DNA of 64,000 nt, taken from assembly GCA_017559445.1 (NCBI GenBank), contig JAFYSJ010000003.1, positions 1,913 through 65,912 on the forward strand, in the 5' to 3' direction. The stretch's first letter is position 1, and each line of letters starts with the position of its first letter. Under the pieces are notes generated by a model, which made no database searches, was not told where the DNA came from, and saw nothing but the letters and a program-made list of their open reading frames with translations. Shown here one piece after another: positions 2-58,390 of the stretch. The stretch is from Clostridia bacterium (GTDB lineage: Bacteria; Bacillota; Clostridia; RGIG7378). The position numbers and the translations under genes are program-made.

Positions 2-3000
2 ACGAGAATTAGTGTTACATATACACATACAGGAACAAGTCAGGCAAGAATTTATCCATATTTGGTTTTGAATGGAAATGGAACTATATATATTGATTCA
101 CTTCAGTTAGAGGAGAGCAAGACAGCTACAAGATTTAACATAGTCAGAAACAGCGATTTTGCTAGTTCTAATACAAGCTCTGGTATATTGGGATGGGATC
201 TTTCTGATTCCACCAGAATAAGTAGAGTAAATATATCTTCAGCCACAGACACTTTGGATAACAATGTAATCAAGATGGAAGGAGATCCTAATAGCCGTGC
301 ATATGCATCTCAGGAGATTAGTATTTCCGGCAAAAGTGGAGATACATTTGTAGTATCAGCTTGGGCTAAGGCAGATTCTGCACGATTAGGTGAAGTACAA
401 ACTTATGCACAAGATAGAATGTTTGGAATAAAGGTGCAGCTTTATAATAATAGTAACCTAATAAGTCAGGATATCTTCTCCTTTAATCCAGATATAGACT
501 CTACTAACAATTGGCAATATTTAGCTGAAGAGGTAAAAGTAAATGGAACAGTTACCTCTATTAAAATAACTCTTCTTTACGACTTTAACCTTAATACTGC
601 ATATTTTGACGGAATCCAAATATATAGGGAGAAGTTCGGTACAGAATACACATATAACACTGATGCAAACATAAGCCAGATTATTGATGCAAATGGAGGA
701 GAAACAACTTTAACCTATACTACACAGAATAAAAACAACATAGAGACTGTTAAACTTCCGGACAAAACAGAGTATGGATATGTATACAATGCGTATAACC
801 AAGTAATAAAGGAAACAACACCAGAGGGCATAGTATATTCCTATGTTTATGATGACTATGGCAATAATATAAAGTCCTTTGTAGGAACAACATCAAATCC
901 AAAGCAAATAGGCATTGAAGCACAGTATACTTTTAATGGTGAGTATTTGTCTTGGATTACAGATACCGTAGGAAATAAGACTAGATATGGATATGATACG
1001 GCTACAGGACGTCTTATATGGGTTCAGTATCCTAATGATACAACCTCTACTAGAACTGAATACAAGTATGATTCTAGAGGAAGACTTGTGTCTACATCTA
1101 AATCTAATGGAACGGCTACGCTAAAGGAGACAAATGCTTATTCAGAGGGAATGTTAAGCGTGCTAACTCATACAGGACAATCTGCTACAGATGATACAGA
1201 CTATTCATTCTTGTATAACAATTGTGACCTCATAAGTAGTGTAAAGGTTGGTTCTAGAACATTAGCATCTTACACCTACAATAACGCATATGAGAAGCAG
1301 CTAACAACCCTCGTATATGGTAATGGTCATAGCATTAATTATGTTTACGATGAGCACGGAAGGACATCTAGTATAACATATGGTTCAAATGGCAATTCAG
1401 GTCTTACATATACCTATGATCAGGAAGGTAGACTTTCTGAGGTTACAGATTCGGATGCTGCTACTATTACGAAGTATGTTTATGACGAAACAGGTAGATT
1501 AGAAAAATATAGGATAACTTCTGGAAACAATGTTTTGTATCAGGAGGAGTATAGCTATAACCAACTGAATAATGTAACTGGCATAAAAGCCATTGTAAAT
1601 GATAAGTTTTTAATCTCAAATTATAGTTATAACGACAATAATGTATTGACTGAAATTGCAGAAACTTTTGGTTCTAATTCTATATCACAAAGACAGGTTT
1701 ATGCTTATGATACTCTTGGTAGATTGGCAACTATTTATTCTAAAGAGGGTGCCACGAATGTAGTGACTACAAGTTTGGATTACAAAGCACCGAATAATAG
1801 TCATGCAAGCAGCATGCTTGTATCTACTACAACTGTAGTATCACAGTGGATTAATACCTATGGTGGAACAACATCTAGCTATTATTATGAATACGATGGT
1901 AATGGCAATATTACTGAGATATCTCCTGATAATGTGTTTAATGATGGGGATGGTGTGGAATTCCAATATGATTCCATAAATCAGTTAACTAGAGTAAATG
2001 ATAAAATAAATAACGAGACATGGGTTTATACTTATGACTTAGGTGGCAATATAACCTCTAAGAAGAGATATGCATATACAACAGGCACCTTGGGCTCTGT
2101 ATTAGAAACCGTATCCTACTCTTATACAGATAGCAGCTGGGCAGACTTGCTTACATCTTATAATGGCAAGTCGATAACTTATGATGCAATAGGCAACACG
2201 TTAAGTGATGGCACGTGGACTTATACATGGGCGCGTGGCAGACAGCTAGCAAGTCAAAATGACGGCACAACAACATGGTCTTATACATACGATGCAACTG
2301 GTCAAAGACTTACTAAATCTAATGGAACACTTACATATCACTATATCTATAACGATATGCAGTTAATGTATATGAAGGTGAAAAATGGTTCTACTGTAGT
2401 ATGTGAGATGTATTTCCAGTATGGACAGCTTGGCCTCATGGCCATACAATATATTAGTAGTAGCTTGACAGACACATACTATGTAGTAACTAATGCTCAG
2501 GGTGATGTTGTTGCTCTGGTTGATGGTAGTGGAACAAAGGTTGTCGAATATACCTACGACGCATGGGGTAAGTTAACAAACATGACAGGCTCTAAGGTTG
2601 GCACAGTAGGTAAGTATAACCCCATCCGCTACAGAGATTATGTCTACGATACAGAAACACAGCTGTATTATCTCAACACTAGATACTACAATCCTGATAT
2701 GTGCAGGTTTATTAATGCAGATGGCTATGCAAGTACAGGAGATGAGCTTACAGGATCTAATATGTTTGCGTACTGTGCAAATAATCCTGTGAATATGACC
2801 GATCCAACAGGTGAGTTGCCAGATTGGGCAAATAAATGGATTGCTATTGTTACGGTAGCTACTGTTGTAGCTGTAGCTACGACAATAACAGTTATGACCT
2901 ATGGAGCAGGTTCTGTTGCTGGTGTTGCGATGATAAGTGCTACATTAACTTTATTAGCAAAAACAACCGAAGTCGCCGTGTTGCAAGTAAAAAAAGGGGT

Positions 3001-3307
3001 ATTGGAGGAAGATGATAGTAATCAAATCACACAAGATACAATTGAAGCAATTTATGATAACGGCTTGAAAATAATAGGTTTTACCCCTTTCACCAAGACA
3101 GTAGGAATAGGAGCTAATCATTTTTTAACAGCAACGGTTGTTAAGGATTTTGGAGGAATTCAGACATTGAATCAAACACTACAATCAACTGGTGGTAAGG
3201 CAATGCCTTATGCATTTGCTGCGATTGCGTGGGTAAACACAATTAATTCTGCATTTTCTAATGATCCTGAAAGTAGAGCTAAGTCAAGAGGATATGTATT
3301 AAAATGA
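2..3307 (+). CDS. RHS/YD-repeat polymorphic toxin (WapA-like), 5'-truncated by the window
   Basis: Frame is open from base 2, so the track start at 62 is not the real start. Many YD/YTYD repeats; RHS core end YYLNTRYYNPDMCRFINAD...NMFAYCANNPVNMTDPTG, then a 164-aa variable tip (2813-3307). Confidence 0.93.
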   Translation, partial: TRISVTYTHTGTSQARIYPYLVLNGNGTIYIDSLQLEESKTATRFNIVRNSDFASSNTSSGILGWDLSDSTRISRVNISSATDTLDNNVIKMEGDPNSRAYASQEISISGKSGDTFVVSAWAKADSARLGEVQTYAQDRMFGIKVQLYNNSNLISQDIFSFNPDIDSTNNWQYLAEEVKVNGTVTSIKITLLYDFNLNTAYFDGIQIYREKFGTEYTYNTDANISQIIDANGGETTLTYTTQNKNNIETVKLPDKTEYGYVYNAYNQVIKETTPEGIVYSYVYDDYGNNIKSFVGTTSNPKQIGIEAQYTFNGEYLSWITDTVGNKTRYGYDTATGRLIWVQYPNDTTSTRTEYKYDSRGRLVSTSKSNGTATLKETNAYSEGMLSVLTHTGQSATDDTDYSFLYNNCDLISSVKVGSRTLASYTYNNAYEKQLTTLVYGNGHSINYVYDEHGRTSSITYGSNGNSGLTYTYDQEGRLSEVTDSDAATITKYVYDETGRLEKYRITSGNNVLYQEEYSYNQLNNVTGIKAIVNDKFLISNYSYNDNNVLTEIAETFGSNSISQRQVYAYDTLGRLATIYSKEGATNVVTTSLDYKAPNNSHASSMLVSTTTVVSQWINTYGGTTSSYYYEYDGNGNITEISPDNVFNDGDGVEFQYDSINQLTRVNDKINNETWVYTYDLGGNITSKKRYAYTTGTLGSVLETVSYSYTDSSWADLLTSYNGKSITYDAIGNTLSDGTWTYTWARGRQLASQNDGTTTWSYTYDATGQRLTKSNGTLTYHYIYNDMQLMYMKVKNGSTVVCEMYFQYGQLGLMAIQYISSSLTDTYYVVTNAQGDVVALVDGSGTKVVEYTYDAWGKLTNMTGSKVGTVGKYNPIRYRDYVYDTETQLYYLNTRYYNPDMCRFINADGYASTGDELTGSNMFAYCANNPVNMTDPTGELPDWANKWIAIVTVATVVAVATTITVMTYGAGSVAGVAMISATLTLLAKTTEVAVLQVKKGVLEEDDSNQITQDTIEAIYDNGLKIIGFTPFTKTVGIGANHFLTATVVKDFGGIQTLNQTLQSTGGKAMPYAFAAIAWVNTINSAFSNDPESRAKSRGYVLK

Positions 3308-5858: not shown

Positions 5859-6761
5859 ATGGAGAAATTTATTCAAACTCTATTTACGGGACTACAGATG
5901 GGCAGCATATACGCCCTTATTGCCATTGGATATACCATGGTTTACGGCATAGTCAGGCTGATTAACTTTGCCCACGGCGACCTGATCATGGTAGGAGGGT
6001 ACGCTTTGTTGTGGGCAATTCCAGTTTTGAGGGGGATGGGACTGCCCCTTGGAATAGCTGTTTTGCTGGCAGTAATTGTCTGTGCAGTTGTGGGGGTTGG
6101 AATGGAGGTTTTGCTGTATGCTCCTGCCCGCAAAAGAGGTCGAAAAATGTCAGCCCTAATTATGGCCATGGGAGTTAGCCTCATGCTTCAAAATGTTGCT
6201 CAATACTATTTGCGAGCAACAGGAACATTGTACGGGGCTGTGGTGCCATCTTTTCTGCCAGTAGGAAGGTTTCGATGCTTAGGTGTTTCCATGGCATGGA
6301 CAACTCCTATAACTATTACTGTTAGCCTTGCGTCCATGGGATTGTTGCAATGGATGGTTAACAAAACGCACATTGGCAGGGCCATGAGGGCAGTTTCTCA
6401 AGATGCGGAAGCGGTGGCATTGGTGGGAATAAGTAGGGAGAAGGTAATTGCATGGACCTTTGGAATAGGAGCGGGACTTGCAGGAGTGGCTTCAGCTCTA
6501 TGGTATTCTGTATATCCAGGTACATCTCCTGTGGCAGGAACTAGTTTAGGGTTATTTGCCTTTGTAGCAGGTGTCTTAGGTGGGATTGGCTCTCTGCCAG
6601 GTGCCATGGCGGGGGGATTGCTAATCGGGTTAATTTATTCCTTCACAGTAAGCTATATATCTTCCAGCATGTCGGAGACAGTTGTGTTTCTGACATTGGT
6701 TGTTGTGCTTTTGGTAAAGCCTGAAGGAATACTGGGCGAAAATAGGAGAGAAAAGGTATGA
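5859..6761 (+). CDS. livH: Branched-chain amino acid ABC permease
   Basis: GSIYALIAIGYTMVYGIVRLINFAHGD; GRAMRAVSQD. Confidence 0.93.
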   Translation: MEKFIQTLFTGLQMGSIYALIAIGYTMVYGIVRLINFAHGDLIMVGGYALLWAIPVLRGMGLPLGIAVLLAVIVCAVVGVGMEVLLYAPARKRGRKMSALIMAMGVSLMLQNVAQYYLRATGTLYGAVVPSFLPVGRFRCLGVSMAWTTPITITVSLASMGLLQWMVNKTHIGRAMRAVSQDAEAVALVGISREKVIAWTFGIGAGLAGVASALWYSVYPGTSPVAGTSLGLFAFVAGVLGGIGSLPGAMAGGLLIGLIYSFTVSYISSSMSETVVFLTLVVVLLVKPEGILGENRREKV

Positions 6762-7774: not shown

Positions 7775-8528
7775 AGGATTAATTCAGACAGAAAACGTGA
7801 GTATATCCTTCGGGGGAATCCATGCTGTTTCGGACCTTAACATGGGAGTTTGTCAGGGACAGATAGTAGGAATAATGGGCCCTAACGGAGCCGGTAAGAC
7901 CACAGTCTTTAATTTGCTAACGGGAGTATATGCCCCAACAAGTGGGAAAATATATGTAAATGGTATTGGTATGGAGGGTAAATCCATGGACCAATTTGTC
8001 AAAGCTGGTGTTGCAAGGACCTTTCAGAACATAAGGTTATTTGGAAATATGACTGTGTTGGAAAATGTCATGGTTTCTGTAGCCAATAAAGGGCGAATTA
8101 GTCTAAAAAATAGTCTGTTTAAAACAGAATATTACATAAGGAGACAGAATGAGGTAAAAAATGAGGCTTTTGAGCTCCTTAAACTCTTTGATTTGCATGC
8201 CAAGGCTCAGGTTTTGGCAGGAGAATTACCATATGGACAGCAGAGACAACTGGAGATTGTCCGAGCATTTGCAACTGGGGCAAAGGTGATTTTGCTAGAT
8301 GAACCTGCAGCAGGAATGAATCCCACTGAGATCATGAAGCTTAAATGTGACCTTAGGCAGTTGGTAGATAGGATGGGACTAAGCCTTGTGTTAATTGAGC
8401 ACCACATGGATCTGGTAATGGGACTTTGCGATTACATCTATGTTTTAGATTTTGGCAAGGTGATTTGCCAAGGGACACCAAGGGAAGTTCAGAGAAATCC
8501 TAAGGTAATTTCTGCCTATCTTGGATGA
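7764..8528 (+). CDS. livG: Branched-chain amino acid ABC ATPase
   Basis: GPNGAGKTT, RTFQNIRLF, LPYGQQRQLEI, LLDEPAAG, AYLG end; GTG start after AGGAGG. Confidence 0.93.
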   Translation: MEGRGLIQTENVSISFGGIHAVSDLNMGVCQGQIVGIMGPNGAGKTTVFNLLTGVYAPTSGKIYVNGIGMEGKSMDQFVKAGVARTFQNIRLFGNMTVLENVMVSVANKGRISLKNSLFKTEYYIRRQNEVKNEAFELLKLFDLHAKAQVLAGELPYGQQRQLEIVRAFATGAKVILLDEPAAGMNPTEIMKLKCDLRQLVDRMGLSLVLIEHHMDLVMGLCDYIYVLDFGKVICQGTPREVQRNPKVISAYLG

Positions 8529-8611
8529 ACGCAAAAAATGTCATCTTTTAAGTTTGTTTAAGTTGATGTAATATATAGTTTATATTACGAACTATGACTC
8601 ATGGAGGGTAC

Positions 8612-9886
8612 ATGAAGATTAAATCAGTTGCAGCATCCTACGATTACGTAATGTCACTTAAGCCACCTAAGGCATTTAAGGCTAAGAGACCTAACCTGTT
8701 CTTTACTTTGCTTAAGAAAACAGTTTCTCTCTTTATGACTGTGCCTTCTAACTTTAAGGTGCAGGAGTTTAACATGGATAAGCTGGATCCCAAGGAGCCA
8801 TGCTTTGTTCTTATGAACCACTCCAGCTTCGTAGACCTTGCAATTGCTGAGAGCATTTTGTTCCCCAGAAGATATAACATCATCGTAACATCCGACGGCT
8901 TTGTTGGTAAGAACTGGCTCATGCGTCAGATTGGATGTATCCCTACACATAAGTATGTAACAGATCCTAAACTTATTTCTCAGATTAGAGGAGTTTTTAA
9001 TAAGCTTAACAGCTCCCTTTTGGTTTACCCAGAGGCAAGCTATAGCTTCGACGGTACATGCACAACATTGCCAGAGAGCCTTGGCGCCATGGTTAAGATG
9101 GCACGTAAGCCTTTGGTAATCGTAACAACACATGGTGCATTCGCTAGAGATCCACTGTACAACAACATTCAGGTTCGTAAGGTAGATATTAATGCAGAGG
9201 TTACATACGCTTTGACACCAGAGCAGCTTAAGGAAATGAGCACTCAGGAAATTAACGAAGTTATCCAGAAGTATTTCTCCTTTGACAACTGGAAGTGGCA
9301 GCAGGAGAACAAGGTTAAGATCGACGTGCCATGGAGAGCAGATTACCTTAACAGAGTTCTCTACAAGTGCCCCAACTGCGGTCACGAGGCTTGCATGGAA
9401 GGTAAGGGTATCAAAGTTACATGCCATGACTGTGGTAAGACATGGACTTTGGACGAGTATGGATATCTTAAGGCAGACGATGGCGTACATATCTTTAACC
9501 ACGTTCCAGACTGGTACAAGTGGGAGAGAGACATGGTTCGCAGAGAGATTTTGGACGGTAAGTACCAATTGGATCTTGATGTAGATATTGCCATGATGGT
9601 AGATACCAAGACTCTTTACAGAGTTGGATCAGGTAGACTTGTCCATAACAGAGATGGCTTCGAGCTTACAGGCTGTGATGGTAAGCTCCATTACACACAA
9701 AAGCCTTTGGCTTCTTACTGTTTGTATTCTGACTTTAACTGGTACGAAATCGGAGATGTTATTAGCATCGGAGACGACAAAGTTTTGTACTACTGCTTCC
9801 CTAAGAACTGTGGCGACGTAGTTGCTAAGGCTAGATTGGCGGCAGAGGAAATGTACAAAATCGTGAAGGCCGAAACTCGCAAGTAA
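8612..9886 (+). CDS. PlsC-like lysophospholipid acyltransferase with C-terminal Cys-rich extension
   Basis: NHSSFVD catalytic motif, YPEASYSFDG block, CPNC/CHDC zinc-ribbon-like pairs. Confidence 0.8.
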   Translation: MKIKSVAASYDYVMSLKPPKAFKAKRPNLFFTLLKKTVSLFMTVPSNFKVQEFNMDKLDPKEPCFVLMNHSSFVDLAIAESILFPRRYNIIVTSDGFVGKNWLMRQIGCIPTHKYVTDPKLISQIRGVFNKLNSSLLVYPEASYSFDGTCTTLPESLGAMVKMARKPLVIVTTHGAFARDPLYNNIQVRKVDINAEVTYALTPEQLKEMSTQEINEVIQKYFSFDNWKWQQENKVKIDVPWRADYLNRVLYKCPNCGHEACMEGKGIKVTCHDCGKTWTLDEYGYLKADDGVHIFNHVPDWYKWERDMVRREILDGKYQLDLDVDIAMMVDTKTLYRVGSGRLVHNRDGFELTGCDGKLHYTQKPLASYCLYSDFNWYEIGDVISIGDDKVLYYCFPKNCGDVVAKARLAAEEMYKIVKAETRK

Positions 9887-9949
9887 CTTTTCTAAAGGGT
9901 GGCAATGTGATATTATTTGCCATATGCCATCTAAACATAGGAGATAGTT

Positions 9950-10684
9950 ATGGATTTTAACAGACTTTCTAGACCACTTGAGTGCCACGTAACTAGAGTG
10001 ACACACAGAGGTCAGACTGCATATTTTATTCACGCAATTGACGACCTGCCAAATGGCTCATCTAGGTCTTATTATTTGATAGACAATAACGGCAAATACT
10101 ATGCCTTCGACAAGGAGGCTACTGCTTTTGCGTTCTGCCGCAGTTTCAAGCATTTGCCAGCATCCCCATATACAGATTACGTTGACACAGCACCAGTGTT
10201 GTCTTGGCTCAATGACAAGAATCCACAGGAACTTTTCTATCACCCAATGGGTATTGCTTTTGCTTTCTGCGAGGCAGTTACAGAGGGATTGGATAAGCTT
10301 AAGGGACAGAAGTATGTAGATGCTTCCATGATTAGCTACATATACTATAACTGTGAACCCGAGTATGTTAGAACAGGTGCTAACCCCTCTCCTGAGTTCA
10401 ACGAATTCCAGGTAAAGTATATTACAGAGACCTTTGAGCATGCAGTAAGGGCCTTTGATAAGATGTTTGATAAGATGAATTTGGATTCCTCCGACACAGA
10501 GGATAATAGACCTAAGGTTCCATCCGACGAGGATATGGCAACAGCTCTTGACCATTGCGAAAAGATTGTGGTTAAGGCAGCCAAGAGACTTAAGTTCGAC
10601 ATGGGATACGAGTATCTTTCTGTTAGAGACATCAAGATGCTCCTTAGCGACTACATTTCAAGGACAGTTCCAGAGGTAGAATAA
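9950..10684 (+). CDS. Hypothetical protein
   Basis: 244-aa ORF, SD AGGAG, host-like codon usage, stop overlaps next start; no motif recognised. Confidence 0.75.
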   Translation: MDFNRLSRPLECHVTRVTHRGQTAYFIHAIDDLPNGSSRSYYLIDNNGKYYAFDKEATAFAFCRSFKHLPASPYTDYVDTAPVLSWLNDKNPQELFYHPMGIAFAFCEAVTEGLDKLKGQKYVDASMISYIYYNCEPEYVRTGANPSPEFNEFQVKYITETFEHAVRAFDKMFDKMNLDSSDTEDNRPKVPSDEDMATALDHCEKIVVKAAKRLKFDMGYEYLSVRDIKMLLSDYISRTVPEVE

Positions 10685-12449: not shown

Positions 12450-12494
12450 TGAACCGGCTGCACCTCGTGAAATGTGCTGTATACGTGAAAAATG

Positions 12495-12535
12495 AGTGCT
12501 TAATTGATGGAAAACCATTGATTAGGCACTTTTTT
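12495..12535 (+). terminator. Intrinsic terminator
   Basis: AGTGCTTAATTGATGG-aaaa-CCATTGATTAGGCACT stem (three G-U pairs) followed by a T run. Confidence 0.75.
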
Positions 12536-12628: not shown

Positions 12629-12780
12629 GGCTCACTAACGAGCTTTGCTCGTGGCCTACTAGCCGAAGGCGGCCACTAGCGAATGCAATGAGCGGCCACT
12701 AGCGCAGCGGTCACTAGCAACGCAGTTGCGGCTCACTAACGAGCTTTGCTCGTGGCCTACTAGCCGAAGGCGGCCACTAG
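12629..12780 (+). repeat. Modular linker/GNA-hairpin array 1
   Basis: 8 linkers GGYY(Y)ACTA alternating with 7 mini-hairpins; includes a 52-bp direct repeat (12628-12679 and 12729-12780). Confidence 0.92.
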
Positions 12781-12800
12781 AGAATGCGTCACACTAATGC

Positions 12801-12829
12801 TTTACGCTTTCCCTTATAGGTGTTAAAAT
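12801..12829 (+). promoter_or_regulatory. Putative sigmaA promoter of trpS
   Basis: TTTACG-17 bp-TAAAAT with TG extended -10, 32 nt before the trpS ATG. Confidence 0.55.
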
Positions 12830-17754: not shown

Positions 17755-19581
17755 TTGGGTACTAGACAGGATATTAGAAATATTGCGATTATCGCCCACG
17801 TAGACCATGGTAAGACTACTTTGGTTGACAAGATGCTTAAGCAGAGCGGTATTTTCCGTTCCAATGAGGTTGTAGAAGACAGAGTTATGGACTCCAACGA
17901 CTTAGAAAAAGAGCGTGGAATCACAATTTTGGCAAAGAATACATCTGTTAATTACGGTGAGCATAGGATTAACATTATCGACACTCCAGGCCACGCAGAC
18001 TTTGGTGGCGAGGTAGAGCGTGCACTTAACATGGCAGATGGCGTACTCTTGTTGGTAGATGCCTTTGAGGGAACAATGCCACAGACAAGATTCGTTTTGC
18101 GCAAGGCATTGGCAATGGGTCTTAAGATTGTAGTTGTAATTAACAAGATTGATAGACCAGAGGCAGATCCAGTTAAGGTAGTAGACGAGGTTCTTGACTT
18201 GTTCATCGAGCTTGGAGCAGATGAGGACCAGCTTGAGTTCCCAGTTGTATATGCATCTGCAAGAGATGGATATGCATTGGCAGATCTTGGTGATGAGCCC
18301 AAGGATATGCGTCCAATTTTTGAGGCAGTCCTTAAGCACATTCCTGCTCCAGAGGGAGATTTTGACAAGACACCTAAGATGCTTGTTTCCAACATTGAAT
18401 ACGACGAGTACGTTGGTAAGATTGGTATTGGTAAGGTAACAAATGGTACTTTCACAACAGGTCAGTCCATTCAGATTATTGACAGAGATAACAAGCTTCG
18501 TAACGGCAGACTTTCCAAGATGTTCTTCTTTAGCGGTCTTGGTAAGACAGAGGTTAACACAGCTTCTGTAGGTGATATTGTTGCAGTTGCTGGTATTGAC
18601 AACATCTCTATTGGAGAGACTATTTGTGTATCTGGAGACAACGAGGCTCTCCCATTTGCAGATATTGAGCAGCCCACAATCTCCATGACTTTCTGTGTAA
18701 ATGACAGTCCATTTGCAGGTCGTGAGGGTACATATGTAACATCTCGTCATATTAGAGATAGACTTATGTTCGAGCTTCAGTCCAACGTTTCTCTTATGGT
18801 TGAGGAGACAGATTCTCCTAATGCATTTATCGTAAAGGGTAGAGGTGAGCTTCACCTTTCTGTACTTATTGAGACAATGAGACGTCAGGGTTACGAATTG
18901 GCAGTTACTAGACCTAGAGTTCTTTATAAGAACGACGAAGAGGGCAACCTTTTGGAGCCTATCGAGCTTTTGGTAATCGACGTACCAGAGGAGTATGTAG
19001 GTACAGTTATTGAGGCCCTTGGACGTCGTAAGGCTGAGATGACTCAGATGCATACACCAGATAGAGGATACACTAGATTGGAGTTCAGAATTCCATCTAG
19101 AGGCCTTATTGGATATAACGCAGAGTTCCTTACATCCACACGTGGTCATGGTATTATGAACCATTTATTTGAGGGATATGAGCCATACAAGGGAGATCTT
19201 AACGCAAGAAGCCATGGTTCCATGGTTGCTTGGGAAAATGGCGATACAACAGATTACGGTTTGTTCAACGCACAGGACAGAGGTACACTCTTTGTAGGTG
19301 CTGGACAGAAGGTATACAAGGGAATGATCGTAGGTGAGTGCTCTAAGGGCGATGACCTTGATATTAACGTATGTAAGAAGAAGCACCTTACTAACATGCG
19401 TGCATCTGGTTCTGATGAAGCACTTAGATTGGAGCCACCAAGAATCATGTCTTTGGAGAAGTGCATCGAGTTCATTTCCGATGACGAGCTAGTTGAGATC
19501 ACACCTAAGAGCATTCGTTTGCGTAAGCAGGTGCTTGATACAGAACAACGTGCTAAAATGAGAGCGAAGGCCAAAGTTTAA
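17755..19581 (+). CDS. typA: Translational GTPase TypA/BipA
   Basis: [45 protein letters not shown]; TTG start. Confidence 0.97.
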
Positions 19582-19594
19582 TTAAGAACACCGT

Positions 19595-19722
19595 GGCTCA
19601 CTAGCGAGTGAAACGAGCAGATACTAGCAACGCAGTTGCGGCCTACTAGCGCAGCGGTTCACTAGCCGAAGGCGGCTCACTAGCGCAGCGGTTCACTAGC
19701 GTAGCGGCTTAATCGCGTAGCG
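19595..19722 (+). repeat. Modular linker/GNA-hairpin array 2
   Basis: 7 linkers alternating with 7 GNA-loop hairpins; same vocabulary as array 1 in a different order. Confidence 0.92.
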
Positions 19723-19747
19723 AAAAACTACACCAAAGGTGAAAGTA

Positions 19748-20881
19748 ATGTTTAAGAAAAAGACACCAGAACAAATTAATAGAGAGAAATGGCGCAAGTT
19801 TTCATCTCGAATCATCAGGTACGTAGCCCTGTTGGTTTTGTTCCTTGGCGTCTTTGCAGCATGCTTTGATTTTTCATACAAATATGCCATGAAGACCGAG
19901 GAGAACAGACTTGTTCTAGAGCAGGCAGAGGGCATGGAGGTAATAGATGGTGAGGAGATTATGATCCCCTACGATTCCACAACCACATCCATTGCAAATT
20001 TGCTCAAAGAGGCTGGATACATCGACAACGTGGCCATGTTTAGATTGCTTTCCAAGATTAATGGATACGACGGCCAGTATCAGGCTGGATATCACATTAT
20101 CTCCAAGCGTATGAACTATAACGAGTTAATGTTCACCCTTACACAGGACGCAATTACAGTAACAGTAATGATTCCTGAGGGTTATTCCATTGACCAGATT
20201 GCAGATCTCCTTGAAAAAAACAAGGTTTGTCCTAAGGAAGAGTTCCTTAGAGCAGTAGAGGAAGAGGTTTGGACATACAAGTTCTTGCAGGATATTCCAG
20301 AGGGCAAGGATAGACTACTTGAGGGTTTCCTTTATCCCGACACTTACTTCTTTACTGTAGGATCCAACGGAAGAACTGTTCTTAACAAGTTCCTTTCCAA
20401 CTTTGAGAACAAGTTTAAGAACAAGTACTATACTCAGATGGAAAAGCTTGGCTTGGATATTAACGAAGTTTTGACCTTGGCATCCATTGTAGAGAAAGAG
20501 TCTTCTAGTTCCAGCGAGAGACGTATTATCGCAGGCGTTTTGTACAAGAGAATGAACGAGACATCAGGTAGCTTAACTAAGCTTCAGTCCTGTGCCACAA
20601 TTCAGTACATTGCCTATAGAGATACAGGAAAGCTTAAGGACGTTATTTACAATAGCGATACATTGATTGACGATCCATACAACACATATCTTAACGCAGG
20701 ATTGCCACCGGGACCTATCTGTAATCCTTCCATCGACGCCATTTTGGCTGTATTGGATATGGATAAGGACACACCTTACTGGTATTTCTGTGCCACAGGC
20801 AAGGGCTCATCTGTTTTTGCAAAAACATATAATGAGCACATGGCAAACGTTAAAAAGTACAACTATATTGTATCTGATTAG
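19748..20881 (+). CDS. mltG: Endolytic transglycosylase MltG (YceG)
   Basis: N-terminal TM, LEGFLYPDTY, LASIVEKE, PYNTYLNAGLPPGPICNP. Confidence 0.95.
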   Translation: MFKKKTPEQINREKWRKFSSRIIRYVALLVLFLGVFAACFDFSYKYAMKTEENRLVLEQAEGMEVIDGEEIMIPYDSTTTSIANLLKEAGYIDNVAMFRLLSKINGYDGQYQAGYHIISKRMNYNELMFTLTQDAITVTVMIPEGYSIDQIADLLEKNKVCPKEEFLRAVEEEVWTYKFLQDIPEGKDRLLEGFLYPDTYFFTVGSNGRTVLNKFLSNFENKFKNKYYTQMEKLGLDINEVLTLASIVEKESSSSSERRIIAGVLYKRMNETSGSLTKLQSCATIQYIAYRDTGKLKDVIYNSDTLIDDPYNTYLNAGLPPGPICNPSIDAILAVLDMDKDTPYWYFCATGKGSSVFAKTYNEHMANVKKYNYIVSD

Positions 20882-38942: not shown

Positions 38943-39077
38943 GTGCCTGCTTGATGGTATCAGTCGGGTCTTGCGCAATGAAATCCTGTGAACCTTGTCA
39001 GGTCCGGAAGGAAGCAGCAATAAGCAGATCCTTTCATGTGCCGTAAGTTAGCCTTGCTGATACCATTAAGCAGGCAT
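38943..39077 (+). ncRNA. ffs: Signal recognition particle RNA (small bacterial type)
   Basis: GTCAGGTCCGGAAGGAAGCAGC domain IV; ends pair (TGCCTGCTTGATGGTATCAG with CTGATACCATTAAGCAGGCA); upstream of dnaX as is usual in Firmicutes. Confidence 0.95.
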
Positions 39078-45711: not shown

Positions 45712-45832
45712 TTTAATCACCTCCGTAACCATATATTTCCCCTAAATTTAATTTCTATTACATGGATTTTGGTGTTGAATGTAACTTTCTGTAAATGCTA
45801 TAATTACGATGAATACATATGAGGAGTTACAC

Positions 45833-47935
45833 ATGACTTATAAATCTATTCTTAAATCTCTTGCATTGCTTGTTGTATGTAGCATGTTGTTCTGCCCTGC
45901 TTTGGGACAGGCTGCAACAGGAACTATTACTGGCACTGATGTTAATATGCGTCAGGGCGCTGGTACTAATACAGCAGTTCTTACTACATTGGGCAAAGGT
46001 GATGTAGTTAATGTTCTTAGCACACAGGGAGATTGGGTAAAGGTTTCCTTTGGTGGATATACAGGCTATGTATATGGAACATATGTTAAGACAACATCCG
46101 TTGGCAATGGCGTTGTTACAGGCGACTACGTTAACATGAGAGACGCAGCAGGTACTAACTCCAATGTTATTACATGCTTGAGAGCAGGTACTCAGGTAGA
46201 GGTAGTTGAGAAGGTCGGTACATGGTACAAGATTAAGTATAATGGCAACACAGGTTATATGTCTGCTAACTATATTAGCACTACATATACTCCTCCAACT
46301 CAGACAACAGCAACACCAGCTCCTACAGCCGCTCCAACAGCAGCTCCAACTGCGGTGCCAACAGCTGTTCCTACAGCTAAGCCTCAGGATGGCGCAGGCA
46401 CAGGTATTTTGACAGGTGACTATGTTAACTTCCGTACACAGGCCACAAGCTCCAGCTCAGTTATTGATTGTTTGAGAGCAGGATCCAAGTTCACAGTATA
46501 TGAGAAGACAGGCACTTGGCTTAAGATTAAGTATAACGGACAGGTTGGTTATATTTACGCTTCCTACGTTAATGTTACATGGTACACAACAGCAACACCA
46601 GCTCCAACTGCCACACCTACTACAGGTACAACAGTTACTTTGAGCACAGGTACAGGTAAGGTTACAGGTGACGTTGTTAACGTTAGATCTGGCGCAGGTA
46701 CAAGCTACTCCGTAGTTACAGCACTTACAGCTGGCACAACAGTTAAGGTAACAGGTAAGGATGGCGTATGGTACAAGATTACTAGCGGTAGCACAACAGG
46801 CTATATGCATAGCAACTATGTTTCTGTAGTTTGGGATACAATTACTGTTACACCTACACCAACAGCAGCACCTACAGCAGCACCAACTGCAACTCCAACT
46901 GCTACACCTACAGAGGTGCCAACAGTAACACCTACACCAACAGCAACTCCAGTTCCAACACCTACACCAGTACCAACACCTACTGTTAAGCCAACAGCAA
47001 CTCCTAATCCGGATGCTGATTTCACAGTAAATGACAGCGGTATTATCGTAGTTGACAAGGCTTTGACTGAGTATGTTTATGCAACTATTAAGGTTACAGG
47101 TGACGTTGTTAATGTAAGAGCAGGCGCAGGTACTAACTACGATGTAATCTATACAGTAAAGAAGGGCAACGAGATTATGCTCTTTGATATTGTAGGAGAC
47201 TGGGCTCTTATTGCATATAACAATCAGTTTGGTTGGATTAGTAAGACTTTGACAACAGCAGCAGATTGTACAAGACTTAAGATTACCGCCTCTGATCTTA
47301 ACGTAAGAGAAGTTGTTCTAAGTGGTAAGGTTATTGGTCAGCTTCAGAAGAATGATATTGTACTCGGTTGTCAGGCTAGCCTCGGTTGGTACAACGTAAT
47401 GAGCTACGATGGTAAGTATAATGGTGGCAAGTGCTGGATTTCTGGCAACTATACAACTAAGGCAGATGACGGCAAGGTTATCAACGAGACAGTTCCTAAG
47501 TACATTAGAGAGAACGGTATCGTAACAGCTGAGGTTATTAAGGAAACAGACAGAGACAAGATTGTAAACAAGGCTAAGGAGTACTTGGGCGTAACATACG
47601 TTTACGGCGGAGAGACACCTAGCGGCTTCGATTGTTCTGGTTTCATCTACTACGTATACGAGCAGGTTCTCGGACTTAAGCTTGAGAGAGTAGCAGCTAA
47701 CCAGGCAACACAGGGTGTACACAAGACTCTCGGTGAATTGCAGCCCGGCGATTTGGTGTTCTTTGATACAAACGGCACAAGCAGCTACATTAACCACGTT
47801 GGTATTTACCTTGGAGATAACATGTTTATCCATGCATCCTCCGGTAGTGGCAAGGTTGTTATTTCACAGTTGTCAGGATTCTATTCCAAGACATACATGA
47901 CTGGTAGAAATGTAATTGATTACATGCCATATTAA
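45833..47935 (+). CDS. Secreted cell-wall endopeptidase: six SH3b domains plus NlpC/P60
   Basis: Signal peptide, repeated TGDxVNxRxxAG SH3b starts, Pro/Thr linkers, GFDCSG and HVGIY..HAS catalytic motifs. Confidence 0.93.
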   Translation: MTYKSILKSLALLVVCSMLFCPALGQAATGTITGTDVNMRQGAGTNTAVLTTLGKGDVVNVLSTQGDWVKVSFGGYTGYVYGTYVKTTSVGNGVVTGDYVNMRDAAGTNSNVITCLRAGTQVEVVEKVGTWYKIKYNGNTGYMSANYISTTYTPPTQTTATPAPTAAPTAAPTAVPTAVPTAKPQDGAGTGILTGDYVNFRTQATSSSSVIDCLRAGSKFTVYEKTGTWLKIKYNGQVGYIYASYVNVTWYTTATPAPTATPTTGTTVTLSTGTGKVTGDVVNVRSGAGTSYSVVTALTAGTTVKVTGKDGVWYKITSGSTTGYMHSNYVSVVWDTITVTPTPTAAPTAAPTATPTATPTEVPTVTPTPTATPVPTPTPVPTPTVKPTATPNPDADFTVNDSGIIVVDKALTEYVYATIKVTGDVVNVRAGAGTNYDVIYTVKKGNEIMLFDIVGDWALIAYNNQFGWISKTLTTAADCTRLKITASDLNVREVVLSGKVIGQLQKNDIVLGCQASLGWYNVMSYDGKYNGGKCWISGNYTTKADDGKVINETVPKYIRENGIVTAEVIKETDRDKIVNKAKEYLGVTYVYGGETPSGFDCSGFIYYVYEQVLGLKLERVAANQATQGVHKTLGELQPGDLVFFDTNGTSSYINHVGIYLGDNMFIHASSGSGKVVISQLSGFYSKTYMTGRNVIDYMPY

Positions 47936-47942
47936 AATTCAG

Positions 47943-47970
47943 GTCCTCGCAGAAATGCGGGGACTTTTTT
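47943..47970 (+). terminator. Intrinsic terminator
   Basis: GTCCTCGCA-gaaa-TGCGGGGAC followed by T6. Confidence 0.85.
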
Positions 47971-48026
47971 ATTGCAAAAATAGGTATATAATTAAATTAG
48001 GGAAGAAGTAATGGAGGGTGAGAGTT

Positions 48027-50135
48027 ATGAGGAAGATGCACGTTTTAATAGTTGTTCTAATTGCAATATTAACTTTAGGAGTACAGACTGCTTTTGCGGA
48101 TGAAAGAGCTACTTCTGGTAAAGCAGGTGACGATGTTACATGGTTCTTTGACGAAACCACTGCCACCTTAACATTTTCCGGAACAGGCAGATTAGAATCT
48201 CGTTATACAACTTCTAGAGAAGAATGGTATTCTTGGTCGGAAGAAATAAAATATGTGGTAGTTGAAGAAGGTATTGAAGATTTGTATGGCAGCGTTTTTT
48301 GTAGGCTAGAAAAGATGGAACAGGTATCATTACCAAGCACGTTAAAGTGTATAGGAGATGGTGCCTTCCTTCATTGCTATGGCATTAAGGAAGTTGTCGT
48401 ACCTGAAGGTGTTACGATTATAGATAATAGTGCTTTTAAGTTTTGCAAATCATTGGAACGCATATCATTGCCAGACAGCTTAGAAACTATTGGTCACAAT
48501 GCATTTACAGGATGTACTTCTTTACGATCCATTAGTATTCCGGATAAAGTTAAGCTTGTAAGAATGTCTTCATTTGCGGATTGTACAGGATTAGTTTGTA
48601 TAACGTTTGGAAAGGGCGTTGAATCTGTGGATTCAATGACACAAACCTCAGAATCTAGAATTAGGACACTTATTTTCACTGGAAGTGCGCCAAAAATTGA
48701 TGATATATTTCTCTACAGGGTCACAGCAACAATTTATTATCCGGAAGGGGATAGTTCCTGGGACAACTGGTTTAATGTTAATGATTTAGGTAATACAGTA
48801 AAATTGGTTCCAGTAAAGGACCCATCTGCCATAGTTCCTAACTTGGATTTAGATGTATATGAAGGATTTTGTGGCCAGGATGCCTATTGGTCTTTAAAGG
48901 ATGGTGAGCTCAGAATTACAGGAAAAGGATCTATAACTTCTGCCCCGTGGCATTTTATAGGAAAAGAAGTCAAAAAAATTGTTATAGAAGATGGAATAAC
49001 AAGCATTGATGGTACATATATTTTCTATACTTGTCGAAATGTTGAGGAAATATATATTTCAAATAGTATGGAAAGTATTGTATCGAGTGCATTTGAAGGA
49101 AGTGGAATAAAGTCAATTGTGATTCCAGGCTCGCTAAAAGTAATTCCCTCTGAAACTTTTAGTAATTGTAGTAAGCTTGAGACAGTTGTGATTTTAGATG
49201 GAGTTGTGTCTATTGGGGAAAGGGCATTCTCTTTTTGTGAAAATCTAGTTTCAATTGAACTGCCAAACTCATTAGAACGAATAGAAGATGCGGCCTTTAT
49301 GGGATGTTCGTCATTAAAGACTCTTATTATTCCTCCTAACATTAAGTTTATGGGTGAGAAGTCATTAGCAGGAACAAGAAGTTTGGAACATATTTATTTC
49401 ACAGGAGAAAAACCTGAAGTTTCACCATATATAACTTATAGTTATTCGGGATTTACAGTACATATACCTAGTTACGTTGAGTCCTGGAAACTTTATAGAG
49501 AAGGTGAATATCATAGCATAGGCGGTATAATCTATGTGGTGAAATATGATTGTCAGCACTCATATGGTGTTTGGACTAAAGCAGACGGGGACAACCATAC
49601 GAGAAAATGTTTAAATTGTGGATACGTAGCATCTGAGGAACACTCTTGGACAGAAAAGAGTATAGATAAAACTCCAACATGTACAGAAGCTGGTTCTAAG
49701 ACTATGAATTGCAAAACCTGTGGTGCCGTAAAGACAGAAACCATTGACCCTCCAGGCCATGCAGTAGATAGATCCTTGAACTATGAGCAAAGTGATACAC
49801 ACCATTGGAAGATTTGTCTAGATTGTGGTGGTAAGGTAGACGAACAAGAGCATCAAGGAGAAGAGGAGTGTGAGGTATGTAGGTATAAGCCGGAGCCAAC
49901 TCCTACACCGGAGCCAACAGCTACTCCAACACCAACAGCAGAACCTACGCAGGAACCAACAGCTACATCAGAACCAGGAGATGAGAATGTAGTTGTCACA
50001 CCAACTGCAGAACCAAATCAAGAGGTGGAAGAACCAAAGCCAAAAGAGAATGGCAAGGTGTGGGTATATGTAGTTGGTGGAGCAATCTTAGCAGGAGCCG
50101 CAATTACAGTGCCTATTGTTTTAAAGAAAAAATAA
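48027..50135 (+). CDS. BspA-type LRR surface protein with Cys/His repeats and C-terminal membrane anchor
   Basis: Signal peptide, LRR_5 repeats (LPxxLxxIGxxAFxxC), CxxC/His repeats, PT/PE linker, TM plus KKK. Confidence 0.88.
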   Translation: MRKMHVLIVVLIAILTLGVQTAFADERATSGKAGDDVTWFFDETTATLTFSGTGRLESRYTTSREEWYSWSEEIKYVVVEEGIEDLYGSVFCRLEKMEQVSLPSTLKCIGDGAFLHCYGIKEVVVPEGVTIIDNSAFKFCKSLERISLPDSLETIGHNAFTGCTSLRSISIPDKVKLVRMSSFADCTGLVCITFGKGVESVDSMTQTSESRIRTLIFTGSAPKIDDIFLYRVTATIYYPEGDSSWDNWFNVNDLGNTVKLVPVKDPSAIVPNLDLDVYEGFCGQDAYWSLKDGELRITGKGSITSAPWHFIGKEVKKIVIEDGITSIDGTYIFYTCRNVEEIYISNSMESIVSSAFEGSGIKSIVIPGSLKVIPSETFSNCSKLETVVILDGVVSIGERAFSFCENLVSIELPNSLERIEDAAFMGCSSLKTLIIPPNIKFMGEKSLAGTRSLEHIYFTGEKPEVSPYITYSYSGFTVHIPSYVESWKLYREGEYHSIGGIIYVVKYDCQHSYGVWTKADGDNHTRKCLNCGYVASEEHSWTEKSIDKTPTCTEAGSKTMNCKTCGAVKTETIDPPGHAVDRSLNYEQSDTHHWKICLDCGGKVDEQEHQGEEECEVCRYKPEPTPTPEPTATPTPTAEPTQEPTATSEPGDENVVVTPTAEPNQEVEEPKPKENGKVWVYVVGGAILAGAAITVPIVLKKK

Positions 50136-56950: not shown

Positions 56951-58390
56951 ATGGTACCGTACGAAGGTAGAGAGCCATATATTTTCATTAGCTATGCCCA
57001 CAAGGATAGCGATGTAGTCATGCCTATTATTGAGGCCATGGCTGATTATGGTTTTCGTATTTGGTACGACGAAGGTATTGAAGCTGGTACTGAGTGGCCT
57101 GAGTACATAGCAGAGCATTTGGAGAATGCAGGAGCGGTTATTGCTTTCTTATCTGATGCATCCTTGGGATCTATTAATTGTCGTCAGGAAATAAATGAGG
57201 CAATCAATATGCAAAAGGATCTGTTGGCTATTCATCTTCATGAGGTGAAGTTGACTCCAGGTATGCGCATGAGACTTAGCTTGATTCAGGCTATGTTTAT
57301 GTATCGCCACAAGGATATGGATAGTTTCTATGGTGCCCTCTTTAGAGCACAGATTTTGGCTCCTTGCTTAGGTGAGAAAAAGGTTGTTGAACAGCCAGTG
57401 ACGCCTAAGACAGAGGCGGTCCCGGTGGTAGAGAGCATTGTGGAACAACAGGTTCAAGAACCGGAGAACACATTTGAGGAATATCCAATTTCTGATCCAG
57501 AGGATTTCAAAATTCACGATGGAGTCCTTGATGAATACACTGGAAGCAGTGTAATTGTCCTTGTGCCAGAAGGAGTAAGAGAAATTGGCTATAACGAGCA
57601 GAATTTTTGCTTAGTATTAATGGTGAATTCCAAGGCAAAGAACGCCTTTGGTAGAAATAAGGACATTACAGAAGTTATTGTACCAGAAGGTGTTGAGTAC
57701 ATAGGCCATATGGCGTTTTATGGTTGTGAAAACTTAGTTCGCGTCGTATTGCCAAAGACCTTGAAGAAAATAGATAAAAATGCATTCCAAAACTGCTACG
57801 AATTGAAGCAATTGGAGATTCCAGAGGATAGTAATCTTCAATTCATAGGTGAAAGTGCCTTTGAAAACTGCAGTAGTCTTGATAAACTAAGCTTGCCAAA
57901 GTCTTTAAATTACATAGGAAAGAATGCTTTTAGAGCTTGCAGAAGTCTTCAGTCTGTTAGATTTCCATTGGATGGAGCTTTGGAAAAAGTTGGTGAGGAT
58001 ACATTCTTTAATTGCTCGGCACTTGAAAAGGTGACACTTCCTAAATGTGTGATTGTTGTTGAAAAGAGGGCATTTTATGGTTGCAAAAGCCTATGGGATA
58101 TTAACATGCCACAATCCTTAAGGGAGATAAAGGAAGCGGCTTTTAAGAACTGTGAGAGACTTGAACTAGTAGATTGTGCGTGGTTGGGTGTGCTTAAAGT
58201 TATTGAAAAAGAAGCTTTTAGTGGATGTACAGCCTTGAAAACTTTAAGACTTTCCGATACAGTTGAAATGATAGAGGAAGAAGCATTTGTAGGTTGCATT
58301 TCTTTGGATCGTGTAGATATACCTAGGAAGACAAAGATGCCAATGTTTAAACAGGTGTTTCCAAAGCATACAACAGTAAAACGTGTTTAG
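56951..58390 (+). CDS. TIR domain fused to BspA-type leucine-rich repeats, no export signal
   Basis: IFISYAHKD, IWYDEGIEAGTEW, CRQEI (conserved Glu); acidic linker; about 9-10 LRR_5 repeats. Confidence 0.9.
   Translation: MVPYEGREPYIFISYAHKDSDVVMPIIEAMADYGFRIWYDEGIEAGTEWPEYIAEHLENAGAVIAFLSDASLGSINCRQEINEAINMQKDLLAIHLHEVKLTPGMRMRLSLIQAMFMYRHKDMDSFYGALFRAQILAPCLGEKKVVEQPVTPKTEAVPVVESIVEQQVQEPENTFEEYPISDPEDFKIHDGVLDEYTGSSVIVLVPEGVREIGYNEQNFCLVLMVNSKAKNAFGRNKDITEVIVPEGVEYIGHMAFYGCENLVRVVLPKTLKKIDKNAFQNCYELKQLEIPEDSNLQFIGESAFENCSSLDKLSLPKSLNYIGKNAFRACRSLQSVRFPLDGALEKVGEDTFFNCSALEKVTLPKCVIVVEKRAFYGCKSLWDINMPQSLREIKEAAFKNCERLELVDCAWLGVLKVIEKEAFSGCTALKTLRLSDTVEMIEEEAFVGCISLDRVDIPRKTKMPMFKQVFPKHTTVKRV

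Follow-up and report, generated by a model that had tools for sequence, protein, structure and literature searches.

Repetitive extragenic palindromes (REPs) carry a GTAG or CGTC head and have been proposed to act as single-stranded DNA (PMC3333891, PMC2817692, PMC3733652), with no REP superfamily from Firmicutes reported in surveys (PMC3733652). Tandem TAACTGA heptamers, known from Beggiatoaceae, Cyanobacteria and Bacteroidetes, have no assigned function and a patchy cross-phylum spread that suggests transfer (PMC4679880). At a smaller scale, the d(GCGNAGC) and d(GCGNNAGC) mini-hairpins of Hirao and co-workers occur at the priming sites of phages G4 and St-1, bind single-stranded DNA-binding protein (SSB) poorly when in tandem copies, and have a melting temperature of 76.5 C as DNA, the RNA counterparts being considerably less stable (e.g., 39 C for r(GCGAAAGC); PMC13037366). 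Here we set beside these systems an array of very short palindromes (array 2, 19595..19721, forward strand) that fills the gap between typA and mltG in 64,000 nt of an uncultured Clostridia genome (GCA_017559445.1, contig JAFYSJ010000003.1, positions 1,913 to 65,912 of the forward strand), this whole stretch being hereafter called the window.

Overall, we favor, with a probability of about 55%, the view that array 2 belongs, as a single locus, to a family of intergenic arrays that are present in high copy, change rapidly and operate at the DNA level, and that it is a passenger rather than a dedicated regulator. Modules of this family are gained, lost and duplicated as units, are shared between loci, occur in inverted arrays, differ by lineage, and are found in a second phylum. 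The source is a spore-forming clostridial bacterium from the guts of ruminants (sample names XIEF21 and TONG22), whose lineage has a small acid-soluble spore protein gene and whose nearest named MltG proteins, from Acetivibrio and Pseudobacteroides, are 43-45% identical. An exact-sequence literature search found nothing, and no published description of a design with constant linkers and variable hairpins was found in the literature.

Anatomy of array 2 and its palindromes

Array 2 is made of seven head-to-tail modules, each consisting of an 8-9 nt linker (consensus GGYYCACTA, also written GG-YY(Y)-ACTA, with a heptamer core YYCACTA) followed by a perfect palindrome, mostly a C-GNA-G mini-hairpin or a GC-GA-NN-loop-NN-GA-GC unit. 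Reading along the forward strand, module 1 (19595..19618) joins linker GGCTCACTA to GCGAGTGAAACGAGC (GC-GA-GT-GAA-AC-GA-GC, with tandem G.A/A.G and a GAA loop), module 2 (19619..19639) joins AGATACTA to GCAACGCAGTTGC (GCAAC-GCA-GTTGC, a predicted DNA hairpin of -3.7 kcal/mol), and module 3 (19640..19655) joins GGCCTACTA to GCGCAGC (GC-GCA-GC), an instance of the d(GCGNAGC) mini-hairpin motif (PMC13037366). Module 4 (19656..19673) has linker GGTTCACTA and palindrome GCCGAAGGC (GCC-GAA-GGC), module 5 (19674..19689) has GGCTCACTA and GCGCAGC (GC-GCA-GC), module 6 (19690..19705) has GGTTCACTA and GCGTAGC (GC-GTA-GC), and module 7, the degenerate end (19706..19721), has GGCTTAATC and again GCGTAGC (GC-GTA-GC). 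This pattern is beyond chance, since matches to the linker plus foot far exceed shuffle expectation: GGYTCACTAGC with at most one mismatch has 7 matches vs. 1.5 expected (7 being reached in 0 of 100 shuffles), and CTAGCGNAGCGG has 4 vs. 0.28 expected. Tandem Repeats Finder (TRF) reported array 2 with a period of 16 and 3.8 copies.

The 67 modules parsed from nine non-redundant arrays of the window species comprise ~21 distinct inserts, all of which are full-length palindromes, except for degenerate array-end modules and one variant with a single mismatch. Loops are GNA in ~46 of the 67 modules and TNC in one, an imbalance from which it follows that the element has an intrinsic strand. Across nine distinct 15-nt hairpins (two from the Prevotellaceae genome described below), four of six stem positions change on both sides and none on one side only, the covarying stems include no wobble pairs, and all non-Watson-Crick cells are tandem G.A/A.G. 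The sequence-only reading, which had parsed array 2 exactly as given above, had also proposed that structure is kept over sequence, and this covariation bears it out. However, template switching within quasi-palindromes alters both arms at once without selection, and such compensatory change is therefore no proof, taken alone, that pairing is selected.

For the whole array, predicted free energies carry no corresponding signal. Whole-array nearest-neighbour folding as DNA was no better than that of shuffled sequences (z = +0.5 and +0.6), and array 2 as sense RNA folded worse than 199 of 200 shuffles (z = +1.9). When stems are considered one at a time, those of 5-6 bp have a predicted fold, at -3.7 to -5.8 kcal/mol as DNA and -4.6 to -7.9 kcal/mol as RNA, and individual hairpins as RNA range from 0 to -8 kcal/mol. 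The 2-bp GCGNAGC units (four of the seven hairpins of array 2) came out at 0 kcal/mol, with no fold predicted for either nucleic acid. The 15-mers containing G.A gave no predicted fold as DNA, and for one of them a weak RNA hairpin (-1.9 kcal/mol) is predicted. The argument for hairpins is for this reason built on the full-length palindromy of the inter-linker segments and on covariation. Judged by their sequence class, the more than 20 palindrome variants, mostly of C-GNA-G or tandem-G.A type, would form very stable hairpins in single-stranded DNA and weak ones in RNA.

Module turnover among strains and loci

The typA-mltG gap is 166 nt long in the window and in two further contigs (L001 and L002; labels of this kind designate the contigs and loci compared), and these independent assemblies have an identical array. 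A third contig (L005) has a gap of 132 nt, shorter than that of the window by a clean 34-nt, two-module step corresponding to modules 4 and 5 and bounded by the repeat TAGCGCAGCGGTTCACTAGC, and a fourth (L003) has a gap of 301 nt with 14 modules of wholly different content, neither end of which is shared with array 2. The MltG proteins encoded by L001, L002, L003 and L005 are nonetheless 100% identical.

Similar variation was found in the cinA-trpS gap, which houses a second array of the same grammar in the window (array 1, 12629..12796, forward strand; eight modules, with an internal 101-nt block repeat and a degenerate last module). Among contigs encoding identical TrpS, the length of this gap varies between 344 and 725 nt; two contigs (L018 and L022) have four-module block duplications, two others (L017 and L025) have lost modules, and point changes occur in both loops and stems. 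Variants of array 1 retain both ends and change internally. L003 and L022 are one contig, on which both arrays are expanded. Bare runs of TTCACTA and AACACTA occur in another contig of the window species (L023), and in L019 the cinA-trpS gap holds inverted arrays ending in AGTGAAG AGTGAT, the second of which is confirmed by an independent assembly (L020). L019 also has an extra insert of ~160 nt (1600-1760) with long-range complementary ends (ATGACCA..GGAAC and GTTCC..TGGTCAT) and internal GC-rich hairpins; absent from the window, it may be a small structured element or one resembling a MITE (miniature inverted-repeat transposable element).

A third locus (locus C; L045 18343-18790) lies 8.4 kb past the right end of the window on the same 80.6-kb contig (k141_2801502). 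It uses the module vocabulary of arrays 1 and 2 and begins with the stop of a gene, after which come an inverted array (7-8 modules), the hairpin of a terminator, a forward array (8-9 modules) and a near-consensus promoter (11/12 match), followed by a TrpR-like gene and then secA. There are thus three intergenic array loci in the ~83 kb of this genome covered by the array search, a density consistent with roughly 10^2 per genome; further arrays at other intergenic sites of the window region were not found in other strains. When contigs of four gut-metagenome runs were placed on window positions 19300-20000, depth over the array 2 modules was ~36-139x that of the flanks, a ratio that could also count other species bearing identical modules. 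Each run contributed 71-129 contig pieces on array 2, many of them partial, which carry further hairpin types, and many strain-locus contigs break inside arrays. Across the source metagenomes, members of the family thus occur at some 10^2 places.

These observations bear on the simplest explanation of array 2, namely a purely local minisatellite that arose in place by slippage from one ancestral repeat, with no exchange between loci, no trans factor and no function. Such slippage would produce the clean indels of entire modules and the duplications of blocks, both bounded by repeated linkers, as well as the internal duplications of arrays 1 and 2, and heptamer microsatellites do occupy the same sites in relatives (see below). 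However, identical 13-15-nt hairpins are found at three loci, in both orientations, and at ~10^2 metagenome places, and a single hairpin occurs with at least four different flanking linkers. Thus GCAACGCAGTTGC, GCGCAGC and GCCGAAGGC are common to arrays 1 and 2, on the same strand and in a different order (as already noticed in the sequence-only reading), the 13-mer of module 2 recurs in array 1, L003, L019 and locus C, and the 15-mer of module 1 is present, inverted, at the cinA-trpS locus of L019. In addition, the two loci of one genome share a unit type that differs between sister species, and modules of the types GC-GA-NN-loop-NN-GA-GC and GC-GAA-GC after ...ACTA are also found in Bacteroidales. 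We consider an exclusively local origin very improbable, and already disfavoured by these data.

The change at the level of whole modules that had been proposed from the window sequence alone is therefore seen directly, as a two-module indel, four-module duplications, module loss and turnover beneath 100% identical MltG or TrpS. Simple slippage accounts for part of this variation and not for all of it, given that strains with identical MltG or TrpS differ not only by indels, block duplications and losses but by complete replacement of content. Polarised, CRISPR-like addition, which had been named there as something to test, gains no support from array 1, where the ends are conserved and the changes internal, nor from array 2 and L003, which have no end in common. 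What that reading had missed is that the family is genome-wide, hypervariable and shared with Bacteroidales.

From this pattern we infer a mechanism. Misalignment between repeated linkers during replication or recombination would lead to gain and loss of modules, and hairpin formation in single-stranded DNA might assist it. Both arms of a hairpin would change together, through either template switching within the palindrome or selection for pairing, and modules may be copied between loci by recombination or by a candidate enzyme acting on single-stranded DNA, the obvious candidate being a Y1/HUH transposase of the REP-associated kind. Array 2 itself would most likely be a tolerated passenger within the typA-mltG transcript.

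A position inside a transcript could also mean that array 2 acts as RNA. It begins 13 nt after the typA stop codon (TAA, ending at 19581), and the mltG start codon (ATG at 19748) lies 25 nt past base 19722, so that both distances had been given correctly. Upstream, typA (17755..19581, forward strand) encodes the translational GTPase TypA/BipA (TIGR01394, 937 bits), and downstream mltG (19748..20881, forward strand) encodes an endolytic transglycosylase of the YceG family. Gene callers take the ATG at 19748 as the start of mltG, and the recorded product is the 377-aa form, the sole form on record; the GTG start at 19739 in the open-reading-frame list falls within the Shine-Dalgarno sequence AGGTGA (19737..19742, forward strand, by sequence reading). 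We found no terminator-like or promoter-like site in 19581-19748, in agreement with the earlier claim that the gap has no terminator: no module combines a GC-rich stem of at least 5 bp with a T/U run, and no T run follows any of them. The only gathering-level Rfam match in the window is a signal recognition particle (SRP) RNA, with nothing plausible around array 2 at E-values up to 10. As typA and mltG abut or overlap in relatives, the two genes are probably an operon, and with neither terminator nor promoter in the gap the co-transcription of array 2 with them is plausible.

Within such a transcript, the small hairpins might slow 3'-5' decay of the typA mRNA, translation of the two genes might be uncoupled, or terminating ribosomes might stall 13 nt upstream of the array; alternatively, single-stranded GGYUCACUA linkers might offer an RNA-binding protein repeated sites, much as a CsrB-like sponge does, or UUCAC might pair with GUGAA in the Shine-Dalgarno region of mltG. 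Multi-site protein-binding RNAs are indeed built in this way, with variable stems joined by conserved single-stranded linkers, and the start of the array so close to the stop codon, together with the predicted RNA stability of the 5-6-bp stems, would suit a role of this kind. However, the sense RNA folds worse than nearly all shuffles, the prediction is 0 kcal/mol for the 2-bp stems found in four of the seven hairpins, and wobble pairs are missing from the covarying stems. The content is, moreover, wholly replaced between strains with identical proteins, and a sister species bears the complement of the linker.

The placement of the other arrays argues in the same direction. Array 1 lies between a terminator-like hairpin with a T run that follows a cinA/pncC-like gene (12494..12531, forward strand) and a promoter-like site of trpS directly downstream of the array (12801..12829, forward strand; TTTACG, a 17-nt spacer and TG-n-TAAAAT, with the -35 at 12801 and a -10 region conserved in sister species), and is for this reason probably outside the trpS mRNA; the region upstream of trpS showed no T-box. 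At locus C, the forward array likewise lies between terminator and promoter, the arrays of L019 are inverted at the same locus, and two Bacteroidales arrays (L008 and L015) are antisense to both of their neighbours. An RNA cis-element thus seems unlikely, and the effect on mRNA stability put forward in the sequence-only reading is weakly founded, with hairpins of 0 to -8 kcal/mol as RNA, array 1 upstream of the trpS promoter, and arrays in both orientations relative to genes.

Elsewhere in the window, the bacterial small SRP RNA (RF00169, 74 bits) lies at 38962-39061, just upstream of the dnaX start region. Several large surface- or defence-type proteins, namely two BspA-type leucine-rich repeat (LRR) proteins with coding tandem repeats (TRF 46311-46983 and 49890-49924), a TIR_2 plus LRR protein and an RHS-repeat protein, are found among window positions 45809-50135, 56951-58390 and 62-3307, with two more TIR_2 proteins just beyond the window (L045 11975-13966).

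Bare heptamers in relatives and arrays in Bacteroidales

Occupancy of the typA-mltG gap is lineage-specific. In a relative whose MltG is 93% identical (L026), the gap holds ~1.5 modules (TACTA GCGTAGC GG...), and in two relatives at 84% it holds heptamers, namely (AGTGAAA/G)12 without hairpins, which is the reverse complement of the linker core TTCACT (L028), and (AGGTAAG)4.6 (L030); at 65% (L034) typA and mltG are separated by no gap. L028 has a second array, (AGTGAAA)11, directly after cinA, so that its two arrays (647-726 and 9835-9921 of GCA_045588325.1, JAZNEA010000051) occupy the loci of window arrays 1 and 2. The occurrence of bare heptamers in L023, at the array ends of L019 and in L028 shows that the linker is a heptamer repeat with interleaved hairpins, and since two loci of a genome share one genome-specific unit type that differs in a sister species, arrays within a genome evolve in concert. 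Two further observations concern the gene boundaries themselves. In L028 the typA frame enters the heptamer array and stops at a TGA inside it, and a pyrimidine-rich run of opposite sense (CTCTTAC CTCTTAA CTATTAA) lies between array and mltG. In L026, typA (7936-9963) is called at 675 aa vs. 608 aa, probably through a miscalled start or frame, since an ordinary stop (GCATAA) is seen 34 nt ahead of the mltG ATG.

When genomes were scanned with one representative for each species, the array grammar turned up in two metagenome-assembled genomes, one of rumen Prevotellaceae (CALGGO01; three loci) and one of Muribaculaceae from buffalo rumen (loci L006-L009). The Bacteroidales linker is GGC[A/T]AACTA, with inserts GC-GAA-GC, GCGC-GAA-GCGC and GC-GA-GC-AAC-GC-GA-GC, and the flanking genes are ordinary for Bacteroidota, namely an OmpH pair, FAD oxidoreductases, a peptidase C69 and a protein with a type IX secretion system tail. 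Antisense orientation to both neighbours was found in two of six Bacteroidales arrays, the L008 and L015 cases cited above. These arrays are also bordered by unrelated tandem heptamers (GAATGCA x4, TAAACGA x3, GGRGATC x4 and TAAACTA x2, at ~1360-1440 of L006, ~6200-6230 and 6330-6345 of L008, and ~1510-1545 of L009), and seven-base periodicity is a general property of Bacteroidales array sites. Beyond these genomes, a scan of Joint Genome Institute metagenomes gave mostly chance matches and one perfect tandem from freshwater (positions 1-75 of L014, contig Ga0114958_10000826), in which at least five copies of (GGCCACTAGCGTAGC)n stand at one end of the contig, immediately following a gene for a C-5 cytosine DNA methyltransferase. 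Viral contigs gave chance matches within coding sequence only, and plasmid and phage collections had no match to the arrays.

Conservation of sites in a sister species and of grammar across phyla raises the question of a host function at the DNA level, either as a double-stranded iteron array for a heptad-binding or nucleoid protein, modelled on the omega repressor and the 7-bp heptads of inc18 plasmids, or as a signal on the single-stranded lagging-strand template, where SSB-excluding mini-hairpins would expose CTA to primase as in phage G4. A sister species carries arrays at the two loci of the window arrays, the linker heptamer also occurs as contiguous tandem heptads, and consecutive mini-hairpins bind SSB poorly and are found at phage primase start sites of the G4 type (PMC13037366). 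The GNA strand of both window arrays is the G-rich strand, that is, the lagging-strand template. All linkers end in CTA, the trinucleotide at which DnaG primases of Firmicutes prefer to initiate. However, heptad binders need a 7-bp register, which is disrupted by hairpin inserts of 7-15 nt, inverted arrays are found within the same replichore, the heptamer of the sister species (TTTCACT) lacks CTA, and arrays are dispensable in close relatives. The strand of Bacteroidales arrays is mixed with respect to GC skew and does not track it, and there is no obvious need for dedicated chromosomal priming sites. A dedicated host site is, in our view, decidedly unlikely.

Several more specific ideas were rejected. 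Restriction was considered because every linker forms CTAG with the following base, but the remainder of the window shows no avoidance of CTAG (observed/expected 0.83). The Chi sequences AGCGG and GAAGCGG appear at the junction of hairpin and GG, but in some modules only, and their strand skew outside the arrays (32 vs. 9) does not exceed the overall bias in purines and coding strand. Omega-type operators, with the heptad WATCACW, have a weak 6/7 likeness to TTTCACT, and the hairpin inserts again break the register. The anatomy of the arrays does not fit CRISPR, type III antitoxin repeats or integron attC sites.

We return, then, to a rapidly changing DNA-level family of which array 2 is a passenger, and several points weigh against it. 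Nearest-neighbour models give no support to the 2-bp and G.A-containing hairpins, the DNA structure of which consequently rests on published oligonucleotide work, and the high depth ratio may partly reflect other species, as stated above. No transposase or candidate enzyme is found among the 25 commonest of the 96 window Pfam families listed, all of which are housekeeping, and the ordinary genes beside the Bacteroidales arrays, where strand and GC skew do not agree, include no RAYT-like (REP-associated tyrosine transposase) gene. Orientation in the Clostridia lineage looks non-random, in a manner that a DNA-repeat model does not explain: an array that lies after a stop codon and before a terminator is inverted (L019, the array on the left of locus C and the heptamers of L028), and one that lies after a terminator and before a promoter is forward (array 1 of the window and the array on the right of locus C), so that arrays read outward from the terminator, a rule that Bacteroidales loci do not follow. 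Finally, the occupancy of the same two loci in a sister species, together with the cross-phylum grammar, could mean a conserved host function.

We give a mobilising system behind the arrays a moderate chance. It is tempting to speculate further that rumen Clostridia and Bacteroidales share a system that, at the borders of genes, writes mini-hairpin cassettes between heptamer linkers and reshuffles them, a novel kind of very small mobile repeat for which bare heptamer arrays would be the ground state and the candidate would be a horizontally transferred single-stranded DNA enzyme (an HUH/Y1-like nuclease, or one linked to a primase or polymerase); in this full form the idea is tentative and rather doubtful. 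Should the family itself be as it appears, it would add a dispersed-repeat design with constant linkers, variable hairpins, one-way modules and stability as DNA only, occurring in uncultured gut anaerobes of two phyla. The arrays also tie the tandem heptamer repeats of several phyla to hairpin arrays, which makes the origin of both testable, and they offer a natural test bed for GNA mini-hairpins in vivo, their effect on replication slippage, and enzyme-driven movement. In practical terms, arrays break metagenome assemblies (many contigs end there) and serve as hypervariable strain markers. The consequence for typA-mltG itself is likely small.

Comparison with known systems

CRISPR arrays also alternate a constant short element with variable inserts, and their content is also strain-specific. 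Here, however, the constant part is 8-9 nt long (vs. repeats of 23-50 nt), the inserts are recurrent palindromes of 7-15 nt, the loci are small and number ~10^2 per genome, and change has no polarity; no Cas families are among the window Pfam matches listed. CsrB and RsmZ RNAs share with array 2 a beads-on-a-string layout with variable stems and a recurring short motif, but that motif lies mostly in the loops of a discrete RNA gene, whereas here it is the linker, and the present arrays, unlike CsrB/RsmZ, occur in both orientations and in untranscribed spacers, with poor predicted RNA structure.

The mini-hairpin motif of Hirao and co-workers (GCGNAGC or GCGNNAGC) is represented in array 2 by two copies each of GCGCAGC and GCGTAGC, i.e., four of the seven inserts, and the other inserts keep the C-GNA-G core or tandem sheared G.A. 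Published mini-hairpins are, however, single motifs in phage origins or promoters rather than chromosomal arrays, and their stability is known from oligonucleotides. With TAACTGA repeats and the cyanobacterial short tandemly repeated repetitive (STRR) sequences, the arrays have in common a 7-base, genome-specific unit and an intergenic position, often near start or stop codons (PMC4679880), and the bare heptamers AGTGAAA, AACACTA, AGGTAAG, TAAACTA, GAATGCA and GGRGATC occupy or flank array sites. Contiguous 7-nt copies are absent from the window arrays, in which the cores are split by hairpin plus GG with periods of 16-24 nt, but are present in relatives (AGTGAAA x11-12 in L028, AGGTAAG x4.6 in L030 and AACACTA runs in L023). 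The unit sequences differ from those of the TAACTGA paper, which describes no hairpin-interleaved form (PMC4679880).

The likeness to REPs and bacterial interspersed mosaic elements (BIMEs) is broader. Short GC-rich palindromes follow a conserved short head (here ..ACTA/CTAG), are extragenic and clustered, often by terminators, and combine high copy (36-139x flanks) with a strain-variable number of units. In all modules, however, the 5' foot is ..[C/T/A]ACTA followed by G (CTAG) rather than GTAG or CGTC (PMC3333891, PMC3733652). A REP is an imperfect palindrome of 20-40 nt that is conserved in sequence within a genome and whose mismatch is needed for RAYT binding, whereas the array inserts are 7-15 nt long, perfectly Watson-Crick or tandem G.A, and of ~21 sequences. 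In other words, the linker is constant and more than 20 palindromes vary, unlike in REPs, where the hairpin sequence is conserved. Modules are direct within an array, and whole arrays may invert, whereas BIMEs alternate. On our best reading, the family of array 2 thus resembles REPs and BIMEs in its behaviour while falling outside the REPs by head, palindrome and module arrangement.

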